A DNA stretch of 1,316 nt from Escherichia coli (GTDB lineage Bacteria; Pseudomonadota; Gammaproteobacteria; Enterobacterales; Enterobacteriaceae), in the NCBI RefSeq assembly GCF_003334335.1, contig NZ_QOWQ01000111.1; one strand, given 5' to 3'. Positions 306 through 843 of this stretch are shown one piece after another. The position numbers were made by a program, and so were the translations under genes. The notes under the pieces were generated by a model, which searched no databases, was not told where the DNA came from, and was given only the letters and a program-made list of their open reading frames with translations. How positions within the stretch are numbered: position 1 is the stretch's first letter; each line of letters begins with the position of its first letter.

Positions 306-377
306 CGGTTGTCTCTGCTGGCGCAGCAGGTGCCAGTTGTTCAGGCTGGCGTGCGAATTGTAAACCAGAATGCCAGG

Positions 378-404
378 AAAAAACAAAACCCGCCGAAGCG
401 GGTT
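378..404 (-). terminator. Rho-independent terminator of the hok transcript
   Basis: Minus-strand reading AACCCGC-UUCG-GCGGGUU (404..387), a GC-rich stem with a UUCG tetraloop, followed by UUGUUUUUU (386..378). No T-run follows on the plus strand, so it is unidirectional for the minus strand. Confidence 0.7.
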
Positions 405-407
405 AAG

Positions 408-416
408 TGCGGGTGC
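408..416 (-). promoter_or_regulatory. 3'-UTR block (fbi-like) complementary to the 5' end of the predicted hok mRNA
   Basis: 9-nt perfect complementarity with 792..800, located immediately 5' of the terminator hairpin in the transcript. Consistent with the fold-back-inhibition pairing described for hok mRNAs. Confidence 0.4.
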
Positions 417-472
417 GTTGAGGATGCCTGACTCATCAGAGGTGGCGAGGGATTTCTCCCCCGCCAGGTCTC

Positions 473-628
473 TTACTCCTCAGGTTCGTAAGCTGTGAAG
501 ACAGTGACCTCCGTCTGGCCGGTTCGGATTCGTACCTCGCAGAGGTCTTTCCTCGTTACCAGTGCCGTCACAATGACGGTAATACAGATGACGATCAGGG
601 CGACTAACATCGCCTTTTGCTGCTTCAT
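473..628 (-). CDS. hok: Hok/Gef-family type I toxin, 51 aa (MKQQKAMLVALIVICITVIVTALVTRKDLCEVRIRTGQTEVTVFTAYEPEE)
   Basis: Manual reverse-complement translation from ATG at 628..626 to TAA at 475..473. SD AAGGAG (643..638) lies 9 nt upstream of the ATG. The protein has the Hok-family hallmarks: ~50 aa, N-terminal hydrophobic helix, conserved LCE motif and C-terminal AYE motif. From memory it is closest to the chromosomal E. coli HokD(RelF)/HokC(Gef) subfamily, differing at a few positions. Confidence 0.9.
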   Translation of the reverse strand: MKQQKAMLVALIVICITVIVTALVTRKDLCEVRIRTGQTEVTVFTAYEPEE

Positions 629-685
629 AGCCTGCTTCTCCTTGCCTTTCGGCGTGTAAGAGGCTAACCTACATGTGACTAGCAT
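473..685 (-). CDS. mok: mok-like regulatory reading frame (70 aa), an in-frame N-terminal extension sharing the hok stop codon
   Basis: ORF-track 70-aa frame starting at ATG 685..683, with SD-like GAGG about 8 nt upstream (697..694 on the plus coordinates). The 19-aa extension MLVTCRLASYTPKGKEKQA is translated across the hok SD. This matches, as I recall, the mok/hok arrangement of chromosomal loci such as mokC/hokC, which share a stop codon. Confidence 0.65.
   Translation of the reverse strand: MLVTCRLASYTPKGKEKQAMKQQKAMLVALIVICITVIVTALVTRKDLCEVRIRTGQTEVTVFTAYEPEE
642..670 (+). promoter_or_regulatory. Putative sok promoter (-35 TTGCCT 642..647, 17-bp spacer, -10 TAACCT 665..670)
   Basis: Hexamers read directly from the sequence with canonical 17-bp spacing. 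The promoter sits inside the mok coding region on the opposite strand, as expected for sok. Confidence 0.45.
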
Positions 686-747
686 GAAATTGGCCTCAGA
701 TTAATGTTAAGCGTCCTGCAAGACGCATAATGTTAACTGGGGCTTTT
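677..747 (+). ncRNA. sok: Putative Sok-like antisense RNA (~70 nt) complementary to the mok translation-initiation region
   Basis: Plus-strand promoter-like TTGCCT-N17-TAACCT (642..670) predicts a start near 675..678. The transcript would be antisense to the mok SD/ATG (683..697). It ends in a long imperfect hairpin (693..743) followed by TTTT (744..747). Size and position match the known Sok RNA layout. Ends are approximate. Confidence 0.55.
693..747 (+). terminator. Putative sok RNA terminator hairpin plus U-tract
   Basis: Imperfect inverted repeat 693..715 / 722..743 with core stem gcgtc/gacgc (711..715 / 722..726) and loop ctgcaa, followed by tttt at 744..747. Confidence 0.45.
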
Positions 748-750
748 CTC

Positions 751-785
751 TGTCTGCCTTACGGTGGCATGCCCGAGGCAGACAG
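751..785 (-). promoter_or_regulatory. Structured hok mRNA leader element: 9-bp inverted repeat (751..759 ctgtctgcc / 777..785 ggcagacag) around a 17-nt loop containing the palindrome ggcatgcc
   Basis: Inverted repeat seen directly. It lies in the predicted 5' leader of the hok transcript, where hok mRNAs carry regulatory stems (tac/ucb region). Confidence 0.5.
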
Positions 786-791
786 CCTCAA

Positions 792-800
792 GCACCCGCA
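792..800 (-). promoter_or_regulatory. 5' leader block (tac-like) perfectly complementary to 408..416
   Basis: Plus 792..800 gcacccgca is the exact reverse complement of plus 408..416 tgcgggtgc. At least 792..797 would be transcribed if +1 is near 797. Confidence 0.4.
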
Positions 801-803
801 GCA

Positions 804-831
804 ATTCTACTTAACTCTCGCTTTACCGCAA
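804..831 (-). promoter_or_regulatory. Putative hok/mok mRNA promoter (-35 TTGCGG 831..826, 16-bp spacer, -10 TAGAAT 809..804; predicted +1 near 797)
   Basis: Minus-strand hexamers read from the sequence; TAGAAT is a 5/6 match to TATAAT. The predicted start gives a ~170-nt leader before the hok ATG, in line with known hok mRNAs. The predicted 5' end reads GGGUGCUUGAGGCUGUCUGCC. Confidence 0.4.
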
Positions 832-843
832 ACCGTTTTTACC

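Follow-up and report, generated by a model that had tools for sequence, protein, structure and literature searches.

An apparently intact hok/mok/sok type I toxin-antitoxin cassette of the hokD/hokW lineage in a lambdoid prophage of Escherichia coli

Genes and regulatory elements at the locus

The window analyzed here is the whole stretch of 1,316 nucleotides taken from Escherichia coli (NCBI RefSeq assembly GCF_003334335.1, contig NZ_QOWQ01000111.1). A full unit for a hok mRNA was identified on its minus strand (378-832), with the Sok RNA located opposite on the plus strand. The prophage that carries the locus is a lambdoid one of E. coli (Qin/Sp6-like); within it, the locus occupies the nin region and has the same direction as the adjacent phage genes. 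The following features were assigned.

378-404, minus strand: intrinsic terminator of the hok mRNA (stem 387-404, then a U-tract)
380-797, minus strand: predicted full-length hok mRNA, about 418 nt (start at 797 from the RF01794 match, end from the terminator at 387-404)
411-423, minus strand: fbi (fold-back inhibitory element), CCUCAACGCACCC, partner of tac
443-466, minus strand: strong 3'-UTR hairpin in fold predictions (10 bp, GAAA loop)
473-628, minus strand: hok toxin coding sequence, 51 aa (HOK_GEF, PHROG 251, RefSeq HokD)
473-685, minus strand: mok frame, 70 aa, taken from the list of open reading frames; in frame with hok and containing it
638-643, minus strand: hok ribosome-binding site AAGGAG, 9 nt before the ATG
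642-670, plus strand: putative Sok promoter inside mok (-35 TTGCCT at 642-647, 17-nt spacer, -10 TAACCT at 665-670)
660-697, minus strand: Sok-target hairpin of the processed mRNA, from truncated-mRNA folds, in which the mok ribosome-binding site pairs with dcb (660-664)
677-747, plus strand: predicted Sok antisense RNA, 71 nt (coordinates carried over from the sokW misc_RNA annotated in phage 933W, to which it aligns without gaps)
694-697, minus strand: mok Shine-Dalgarno sequence GAGG, read from the sequence, 8 nt before the mok ATG at 685
739-745, minus strand: ucb (upstream complementary box, anti-Shine-Dalgarno), AAGCCCC, almost invariant in relatives
750-785, minus strand: 5' stem-loop (tac-stem hairpin), helix 2, with a compensatory AU to GC pair in 16 of 62 relatives
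786-797, minus strand: tac (translational activator element), GGGUGCUUGAGG, at the 5' end of the mRNA
804-832, minus strand: putative hok/mok mRNA promoter (-35 TTTGCG at 827-832, 17-nt spacer, -10 TAGAAT at 804-809)

The 51-aa peptide matched the Pfam family HOK_GEF (E = 3.5e-22, model positions 1-42 of 42) and PHROG 251, "MokW-like host killing" (E = 5.4e-32, positions 1-50 of 50), and the coding sequence is named HokD by RefSeq in 99.9%-identical genomes. Its exact amino acid sequence was found on at least 999 contigs. The peptide fell short of the curated cut-offs of the NCBIfam Hok models, among them NF007279, a subfamily model for Hok family toxins (46.8 bits vs. 73, E = 1.9e-12), which was treated as an issue of model scope, NF007279 being built around a different Hok subgroup. 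The mok frame starts inside the Sok-complementary region, upstream of hok, which it overlaps. Its exact 70-aa product was present on 270 public contigs. When 62 unique IMG/VR relatives were tallied, 56 had the mok ATG 57 nt 5' of that of hok. Since mok is in frame with hok, its translation would give an N-terminally extended Hok that may or may not be active.

The leader (window 797-623 on the minus strand) matched the Rfam family RF01794 (sok) over the whole model, positions 1-157 of 157, and scored 117.6 bits where the gathering score is 59 (E = 8e-28). Given this score, the Pfam and PHROG matches and the fold of the full-length mRNA (z = -6.65), a chance resemblance is discounted. The Rfam match runs along the hok-sense strand and stops at the hok AUG, and thus validates the leader DNA and not the Sok strand as such. 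Sub-threshold Rfam matches to isrK, rsmX and ceN48, as well as to sok on the plus strand, were taken as chance matches at the level of hairpins.

The hok mRNA start at 797 is 7 nt past the -10 hexamer, TAGAAT, which aligns with TATAAT in K-12 hokC and TATGAT in the R1-type locus; its spacing to the conserved GGGTGC/GGCGC 5' end is equal in both of these loci. Among relatives, the hok -10 region is kept and the sequence upstream of ~817 is not. The Sok promoter is near-invariant in relatives and homologous to TTGCGC-17-TATCCT of the R1-type locus. In the sokW "pro-less" mutant, primer YO-421 replaces an identical -10, and antitoxin activity was lost (PMC8621323). Neither promoter reached the threshold in a consensus promoter scan of the window, so that both assignments are based on homology and not on hexamer quality. 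The hok terminator (387-404, minus strand), followed by a T-run, was the sole terminator-like site found in the window.

The start assigned to Sok is consistent with the annotation of K-12 sokC. Sok was predicted to fold into a free 5' tail and a long hairpin (694-741), followed by CUUUUCU (-29.2 kcal/mol, z = -5.64). At the sequence level, it appears as a cis-encoded RNA with its own promoter and terminator that overlaps the mok initiation region.

No frameshift, stop codon or insertion sequence was found within the cassette, and where it departs from the family consensus, the change falls in a loop or is offset by a compensating one. A 22-bp palindrome at 843-864 was present in only 20 of 77 relatives, and therefore belongs to one variant of the upstream flank and not to the cassette. 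The neighboring DUF551 gene was considered as a pseudogene, but no stop codon occurs in 1094-1315, and this claim was not made.

The first-pass annotation had recognized here a type I hok/mok/sok module, apparently intact, canonical in arrangement and from a known family, and this description was borne out by the Rfam, Pfam and PHROG matches and by the presence of every part it had listed at or near the position proposed. These parts were a Hok coding sequence with a good Shine-Dalgarno sequence, an in-frame mok with a Shine-Dalgarno sequence of its own, an antisense promoter inside mok (recovered by homology, the scan having missed it), a Sok-like RNA of ~70 nt ending in a terminator, a structured leader, complementary 5' and 3' ends, and the hok terminator. 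Its expectation that the 51-aa product would resemble Hok/Gef proteins was also confirmed, and the Rfam search it had proposed gave the RF01794 match. The limits it had proposed (373-831) overlap the cassette but were corrected to ~378-832 for the functional unit and ~385-817 for the part conserved in the comparison of relatives.

Predicted folds of the hok mRNA

The full-length mRNA had a minimum free energy of -175.8 kcal/mol (z = -6.65), and its minimum free energy and centroid folds both close the 5' and 3' ends. The ends are joined by the tac/fbi duplex (12 bp with one bulge, -21.5 kcal/mol), and ucb pairs with the mok ribosome-binding site region. In this modeled state the full-length mRNA is predicted to be closed and untranslatable. 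In the truncated folds, tac takes ucb as its partner instead of fbi, and the mok Shine-Dalgarno sequence takes dcb instead of ucb. The pairing is thus predicted to switch exactly as in plasmid R1, for which the scheme comprises tac/fbi, tac/ucb, the mok ribosome-binding site with ucb or dcb, and a metastable 5' hairpin (PMC9841398). A metastable hairpin would form in the nascent transcript between tac and a 5' arm at 773-785; fold prediction of the first 30 nt of the mRNA gave an 11-bp hairpin of -18.8 kcal/mol.

The Sok-target hairpin has the loop CUAGUCA (676-682), which includes a YUNR motif and is the complement of the initial nucleotides of Sok; across alleles, the hairpin is kept via compensatory changes. 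The 3'-UTR hairpin at 443-466 corresponds to helix 16 of the alignment, which is 92.7% paired with AU/GU/GC variation. By analogy with the 3' stem-loop of R1 (PMC9841398), this hairpin is likely to be the protective 3' end of the processed mRNA.

Across 62 relatives, pairing was kept in 99.6% of cells for tac/fbi and in 99.5% for tac/ucb. As these helices are almost invariant within the family, covariation counts say little, and distant loci were used instead; covariation support for the long-range helices therefore comes from a few such loci only (hokB, R1-type). Changes in tac are compensated in both K-12 hokB and the R1-type locus. In hokB the compensation is three-way, GGGUGCCUGAGA being matched with UCUCAUGGCACCC and AGGCCCC. 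In hokB, the counterpart of fbi follows the stop codon at a similar distance, and in the R1-type locus it is located further downstream. The structures tested in the slide control came from the window itself and were to that extent favored in it.

Relationship to known hok loci and distribution

The cassette was aligned without gaps to hokW-mokW-sokW of the Stx2 phages 933W and Sakai Sp5 (NC_000924.1; PMC8621323), the alignment running over 431 nt from the start of the mRNA as far as fbi, with 89.8% of the nucleotides identical. Common to both loci are the sequences of tac, ucb and fbi and the -35 and -10 hexamers of Sok; in each, Sok is 71 nt long, mok is in frame with a length of 70 aa, and Hok has 51 aa. 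Both lie in lambdoid prophages, co-oriented with their neighbors. In contrast, the C-terminus of Hok (...VTVFTAYEPEE in the window vs. ...VAVFVDYESEK in HokW), the Sok-recognition loop (CUAGUCA vs. CUGAACA), the terminator and the downstream flank are different. The positions in the phage also differ: the window locus lies in the nin region upstream of DUF968/RusA/Q, whereas that of 933W lies beside Ea22-like genes. With both allele and genomic position differing, the cassette is, as judged from sequence, a close paralogue or allele of hokW-sokW and not the same locus.

The cassette groups with the orthologues of hokD (relF) from the cryptic prophage Qin of K-12. Nucleotide identity was 96.6% over 379-642, the only part shared, which comprises the hok ribosome-binding site, coding sequence, 3' UTR, fbi and terminator. 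The two Hok proteins have the same residue at 48 of 51 positions and differ at 3, and ydfU/DUF968 is the downstream neighbor of both genes, with rem lying between hokD and ydfU in K-12 but not in the window. In K-12, window positions 643-832 are replaced by relB-relE sequence, so that hokD has neither the hok nor the Sok promoter and is also without tac, ucb, the start of mok and the target of Sok. The statement of the first-pass annotation that K-12 hokD lacks mok and sok agrees with this, nothing upstream of ~642 being shared and relE-side sequence being present instead. By this comparison, the truncated K-12 hokD has its full-length form in the cassette. Origin of the K-12 relBE-hokD arrangement by simple deletion in a similar prophage was considered and rejected: in the 99.9%-identical prophage, relB/relE-family genes lie by the immunity region on the opposite strand, and a single deletion therefore fails to explain K-12.

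In hok/sok (parB) of R1, which is a plasmid locus and not a prophage one, the elements follow the same order as in the cassette: promoter, tac, ucb, mok ribosome-binding site, Sok target, dcb with the Sok promoter, hok, fbi and terminator. The distance from the mRNA start to the hok ATG is 169 nt in the cassette and 168 nt in R1, and the two alternative folds were predicted alike, although sequence similarity is low beyond short motifs. The protein identity between HokW and R1 Hok is 44% (PMC8621323). The hairpin tip of Sok is ~16-20 nt longer in the cassette. Further, mok is in frame with hok in the cassette and in K-12 mokC but out of frame in R1, where mok starts at 117-118 and hok at 176 (PMC9841398), an offset of 58 nt that places them in different frames.

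K-12 hokC/mokC/sokC (gef) has an identical tac (GGGTGCTTGAGG) and an in-frame mok of 69 aa, and its Sok starts 9 nt inside mok, as in the cassette. In contrast, SokC is 59 nt long and is without the extended hairpin tip, and hokC is chromosomal, outside a prophage, with IS186 located 20 nt past its stop codon. The remark in the first-pass annotation that several K-12 hok loci have been hit by insertion sequences is in accordance with hokA, hokC and hokE, all of which abut such elements.

The hok leader was detected in 2,974 of 5,426 complete E. coli genomes (~55%), with up to 8 copies per genome. Annotation of the leader was absent under all 8 matches sampled from these genomes.

Among near-identical copies, the Sok-recognition loop at 671-690 was a hotspot of variation. 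These 20 nt do triple duty, as mok codons 1-4, as the part of the Sok-target hairpin that comprises its loop and upper stem, and as the 5' tail of Sok. Discrete alleles, roughly 8 of them common, in which the loop is altered and the hairpin kept are consistent with a diversifying "address label", by which each prophage copy of hok/sok would answer only its own Sok. This idea is tentative, at well under even odds. If true, co-resident prophages could not shield the cell from one another's toxin. Differing recognition alleles were found in 15 of 16 multi-copy genomes; random pairs are expected from allele frequencies to be identical only ~13% of the time, so that this comparison is powerless and no claim of allele avoidance is made.

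Proposed mechanism and role in the prophage

We interpret window positions 378-832, with a probability of about 0.88 that covers the mechanism as well, as a type I toxin-antitoxin cassette (hok/mok/sok) that is intact, belongs to the hokD/hokW lineage and lies in a lambdoid prophage. It is a known and ordinary system, as the family, the mechanism and the 90%-identical prophage allele hokW-sokW have already been published.

The sequence elements, their homology and the two alternative folds come from the present analysis, whereas the steps of transcription and processing, the cleavage by RNase III, the coupling of translation and the toxicity are proposed by analogy with R1 and hokW-sokW. The weak promoter at 804-832 would give a 418-nt mRNA from 797, whose nascent 5' end would be held in the metastable hairpin during synthesis. 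In the finished mRNA, tac (786-797) would be paired with fbi (411-423) and ucb (739-745) would cover the mok ribosome-binding site (694-697), and this closed form would engage neither ribosomes nor Sok. Slow 3' trimming would remove the terminator and fbi, allowing tac to pair with ucb and the mok ribosome-binding site with dcb (660-664), and the loop at 676-682, complementary to the Sok 5' end, would become exposed. The short-lived Sok (71 nt, 677-747, plus strand) would bind this loop, block mok translation and mark the duplex for RNase III. When the supply of Sok stops through loss of the element, shut-off of transcription or prophage induction, mok would be translated, and hok, being coupled to mok, would yield the 51-aa Hok, which would enter the inner membrane and kill or lyse the cell. 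In the prophage, the most likely role is the killing of cells that have lost it and/or faster lysis after induction, the latter by analogy with hokW-sokW: HokW is toxic and neutralized by sokW, and the pair speeds lysis and doubles the phage yield after induction (PMC8621323).

The cassette might instead have a complete structure and yet no physiological effect, as a selfish passenger or a relic that is transcribed but kept repressed and from which too little Hok is ever released to affect the host or the prophage. Both promoters are weak by consensus, the best-matching host prophage (in a 99.9%-identical genome) is decaying with several pseudogenes nearby, and other chromosomal hok loci have been reported to be silent: hokA, hokB and hokC, with their architecture intact, failed in post-segregational killing (10.1101/2025.08.07.668861), so that an intact architecture is no guarantee of activity. 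However, the phenotypes of the sister locus hokW-sokW are measurable from a single-copy prophage (PMC8621323), R1 hok kills even from a single copy in the chromosome when Sok is absent (PMC9841398), and 42 of 45 diverse Hok peptides were toxic, HokD among them (10.1101/2025.08.07.668861). Moreover, in hundreds of prophages every regulatory element shows strong conservation between diverging flanks, which argues for purifying selection on the entire switch. Silence is regarded as improbable. Abortive infection as the chief function, in which transcription shut-off by a lytic phage would starve the cell of Sok and free Hok, is also considered unlikely. High-copy R1 hok/sok lowers the plating efficiency and plaque size of T4, according to the account of Pecota and Wood (1996) given in PMC8621323, but this effect is modest and needs the high copy number; hok genes are four-fold enriched in prophages but not enriched near defence systems in the same census (10.1101/2025.08.07.668861). 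The window itself offers nothing that bears on this question.

A stronger candidate, put at somewhat less than even odds, is that the cassette is active but serves chiefly as a helper of lysis triggered by induction and not for addiction, with early-operon transcription that would read through the co-oriented cassette, collide with the Sok promoter and titrate Sok, so that Hok would be produced early after induction and hasten lysis. After mitomycin C treatment, sokW RNA vanishes and HokW appears in a RecA-dependent manner; in the absence of the module, lysis begins ~40 min later and the phage yield is halved (PMC8621323). The hok gene is co-oriented with the replication-to-Q gene block, and in related loci with the flanking ORFs in 82 of 107 cases upstream and 74 of 86 downstream; no terminator was found between the upstream genes and the hok promoter in the window scan. 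Such co-orientation is the default for phage genes, however, and discriminates little. In addition, hokW mRNA was no higher after induction (PMC8621323), the transcriptional-interference step is our own suggestion, and the host prophage may be defective, in which case a role in lysis would be moot.

For the cassette read as an intact module of the hokD/hokW lineage, the value as a discovery is small, as RefSeq already names the coding sequence hokD. For annotation, it shows that the sampled genomes bear no annotation of mok, Sok or the regulatory elements, despite the presence of the leader in more than half of complete E. coli genomes. With respect to ancestry, it appears to represent the full-length ancestral form of the truncated K-12 hokD, with the K-12 breakpoint near window position 642. 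Finally, the near-identical prophage copies, which differ mainly in the Sok-recognition loop, may provide a natural allele series for antisense specificity and cross-talk.

Coding parts, leader and promoters

The 51-aa product of the minus-strand hok frame was recognized by PHROG 251, "MokW-like host killing" (E=5.4e-32), as well as by Pfam. It is named HokD in RefSeq, and its exact sequence was found on at least 999 contigs. A ribosome-binding site (AAGGAG) lies 9 nt 5' of the hok ATG, and the mok frame has its own, so that the Hok toxin gene and the in-frame mok, each claimed in the first-pass annotation to carry a Shine-Dalgarno sequence, were both borne out, as was the claimed hok terminator. 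Neither the hok promoter nor the Sok promoter was above threshold in a consensus promoter scan of the window; both, including the antisense promoter claimed to lie inside mok, were placed by alignment with K-12 hokC, hokB and an R1-type plasmid locus. The features are as follows.

804-809, minus strand: hok promoter -10 (TAGAAT), by alignment, 7 bases upstream of the conserved GGGTGC 5' end at 797
685 (ATG), minus strand: mok frame of 70 aa running in frame into hok, with GAGG (694-697) preceding the ATG
677-747, plus strand: putative Sok RNA, coordinates transferred from the 933W sokW annotation
642-670, plus strand: Sok promoter TTGCCT-17-TAACCT, by alignment (R1 counterpart TTGCGC-17-TATCCT)
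473-628, minus strand: hok CDS, 51-aa Hok/Gef peptide (Pfam HOK_GEF, E=3.5e-22, full model)
387-404, minus strand: terminator, the sole terminator-like site in the window

In the Rfam search that had been suggested for this locus, RF01794 matched end to end at 797-623 (-) and scored 117.6 bits (gathering score, 59). Although this family is named "sok", the match lies on the hok-sense strand, spans 175 nt and ends at the hok AUG, and the model has 157 positions; it therefore describes the hok mRNA leader and not a Sok RNA of ~60-70 nt, and the match validates the leader but does not by itself validate the antisense strand. The hok 3' UTR (383-464, -) also gave a sub-threshold match to isrK, an sRNA of the Salmonella Gifsy-1 prophage (27 bits; gathering score, 50; E=0.0016), which is probably a hairpin-level resemblance.

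Within the hok frame, UACG at codon Tyr47 (487-490, -) was invariant in 62 of 62 relatives. TadA is reported to edit hokD mRNA (A-to-I) at the homologous Tyr codon, which is recoded to Cys (preprint 10.1101/2025.08.07.668861), and the same additional control may act on Tyr47 of this copy.

Sok RNA and the predicted mRNA switch

In phage 933W, sokW is annotated as a misc_RNA of 71 nt, and the window aligned to this locus without gaps from the mRNA start to the 3' fold-back inhibitory element (fbi), which places Sok at 677-747 (+). K-12 sokC, annotated as beginning 9 nt inside mokC, yields the same Sok start. The "promoter-less" hokW-sokW mutant, which is without antitoxin activity, was made with primer YO-421 (PMC8621323), and this primer replaces exactly the TAACCT(A) sequence. 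In the predicted Sok fold (-29.2 kcal/mol, z=-5.64), a free 5' tail precedes a long hairpin, after which comes CUUUUCU; this agrees with the ~70-nt Sok-like RNA claimed from the sequence. The hairpin (694-741) carries an extra GC-clamped tip of ~16-20 nt at 711-726 (+), GCGTC-loop-GACGC, which is absent in sokC, sokB and R1 Sok. On the hok-sense strand, the six-base tip loop reads TTGCAG in the window and its reverse complement, CTGCAA, in most relatives; the difference could have arisen through inversion of a small hairpin or through two transitions.

The 418-nt mRNA (797 to 380) was predicted to be strongly structured (z=-6.65). For the full-length mRNA, the MFE and centroid folds alike pair the 5'-end element tac, GGGUGCUUGAGG (786-797), with fbi, CCUCAACGCACCC (411-423), and the upstream complementary box (ucb) AAGCCCC (739-745) masks the mok ribosome-binding site; the claimed structured leader and 5'/3' complementarity were thus recovered in the predictions. 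When the last ~45 nt were removed, the predicted partner of tac became ucb, and the mok ribosome-binding site paired with the downstream complementary box GCCUC (660-664). The predicted hairpin at 660-697 of the shortened mRNA exposes a seven-base loop, CUAGUCA, which contains a YUNR motif and is complementary to the first Sok bases. The first 30 nt folded alone into a stable hairpin, the predicted metastable structure expected of the nascent transcript. Element for element, the predicted switch matches the R1 scheme (summarised in PMC9841398).

Among 62 distinct relatives from viral contigs, the tac/fbi and tac/ucb pairings were formed in 99.5-99.6% of cases, and since they scarcely vary, this set provides little covariation evidence. 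Compensation of the tac pairings is visible between distant loci: in K-12 hokB, GGGUGCCUGAGA is matched by fbi UCUCAUGGCACCC and ucb AGGCCCC, and in an R1-type locus GGCGCUU is matched by AAGCGCC. In 16 sequences of the family, the 5' stem-loop shows GC in place of an AU pair.

Among otherwise highly conserved leaders, positions 671-690 varied at 0.7-0.85 bit per column, against at most 0.45 elsewhere. This hotspot (both strands) comprises the first four mok codons, the 5' tail of Sok and, in the Sok-target hairpin, the loop together with the upper part of the stem. Its 21 alleles in 120 viral-contig loci differ in loop sequence, with compensatory changes that keep the hairpin, and the allele of the window (loop CUAGUCA) is rare (1/120). 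Co-resident copies differed in 15 of 16 genomes, which is close to random expectation and not above chance.

Prophage setting and relation to K-12 hokD

All sizeable genes of the window are on the minus strand, and a 99.9%-identical genome (L001) places it in a lambdoid prophage. There, replication genes (DnaT-like protein, P) are followed by several small genes, a DUF551 gene, a 34-aa ORF, hokD, a 92-aa ORF, DUF968, RusA, DUF1133 and lysis genes. The counterpart block in O157:H7 Sakai belongs to prophage Sp6 (95.9% identity), where the annotation of the 70-aa frame reads "regulatory protein MokC for HokC". This gene order and the Sp6 block identify the window as nin-region DNA of a lambda-like prophage. 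Neighbouring genes run in the same direction as the cassette, both in the window and in most relatives.

Immediately upstream of hok are two very small hydrophobic ORFs, one of 34 aa (874-978, -; RefSeq hypothetical) and one of 27 aa (1014-1097, -) whose start overlaps the DUF551 gene stop. Family profile searches including PHROG gave no informative match for either; the 92-aa ORF (27-305) belongs to PHROG 1212, a function-unknown family. A perfect 22-bp palindrome, CGATATGGGAATTCCCATATCG (843-864), lies 10 nt past the stop codon of the small ORF and shortly before the hok promoter, with no T-run after it. It was found in 20 of 77 relatives and is therefore part of one upstream flank variant, not of the cassette.

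The K-12 Qin locus (L003) matched the window at 379-642 (96.6% identity) and 1-322 (84.8%). Because the former match covers them, the hok ribosome-binding site, CDS, 3' UTR, fbi and terminator are retained in K-12 hokD, whereas relE-side sequence stands in place of the Sok promoter, mok start, target, ucb, tac and hok promoter. The earlier statement that K-12 hokD lacks mok/sok was accordingly upheld, and the window locus is the full-length form of K-12 hokD. IS insertions at K-12 hok loci had also been claimed, and IS186 indeed abuts hokC and hokE, and IS150 abuts hokA. The L001 prophage has a relB/relE-family pair at 16525-17006, beside the immunity region and on the strand opposite to hokD, unlike K-12, in which relB-relE-hokD are contiguous and co-oriented. 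Between hokD and ydfU, K-12 Qin carries a rem-containing segment of ~420 bp (L003 2103-2524); at this place the window has just 56 bp (323-378), and it has the 92-aa ORF instead.

In K-12 hokD and two unrelated viral-contig loci (L021 and L085), the hok ribosome-binding site, CDS and 3' UTR are joined to different upstream DNA at the same breakpoint, ~16 nt 5' of the hok ATG and just upstream of the ribosome-binding site (window ~642-645; L003 ~2789-2791; L021 and L085 ~685). The shared position points to a site of repeated recombination or to a "leaderless" hok cassette that circulates separately.

Distribution and expected role

Of 5426 complete E. coli genomes, 597 contained at least 80% of the whole window and 2974 contained the mok/sok leader (629-820), of which a single genome has up to 8 copies. 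None of 8 sampled leader matches had an annotated feature beneath it, so mok and Sok are missed by RefSeq annotation there. Among phage records, 110 carried the cassette, some of them from Stx phages and P1-like phage-plasmids; of the latter, plasmid NZ_CP062839.1 (L010) and Punavirus P1 MH422554.1 (H114) carry it at 86-93% identity. It was also found in PP818812.1 (H96), a record whose label, Actinobacillus phage vB_Apl-pPE4, names a host in which an E. coli-type module would not be expected. Hok has been reported in almost 80% of Enterobacteriaceae genomes, with a four-fold prophage enrichment (preprint 10.1101/2025.08.07.668861).

The coding parts, RNA leader and predicted folds confirm the first-pass observation of a hok/mok/sok module of known family and support its reading as intact. 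Since the system is known and this copy is apparently intact, the novelty of the locus is low. The main rival explanation is an intact module that stays silent, a state reported for native hokA, hokB and hokC in the chromosome (preprint 10.1101/2025.08.07.668861). The expectation that the module would work as a standard hok/sok switch is based on published findings for hokW-sokW, to which it has 89.8% DNA identity. HokW is toxic and localised to the inner membrane, and sokW neutralises it with partial help from RNase III and Hfq (PMC8621323). After prophage induction, sokW RNA vanishes and HokW production is then RecA-dependent; deletion of hokW-sokW delayed growth arrest by ~40 minutes and halved phage release (PMC8621323).

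No terminator preceding the cassette was found in a terminator scan of the window and, given the co-orientation with neighbouring genes, early-operon transcription running head-on into the Sok promoter might trigger the switch. By analogy with hokW-sokW, the module would be expected to serve in prophage addiction, in early lysis help, or in both.
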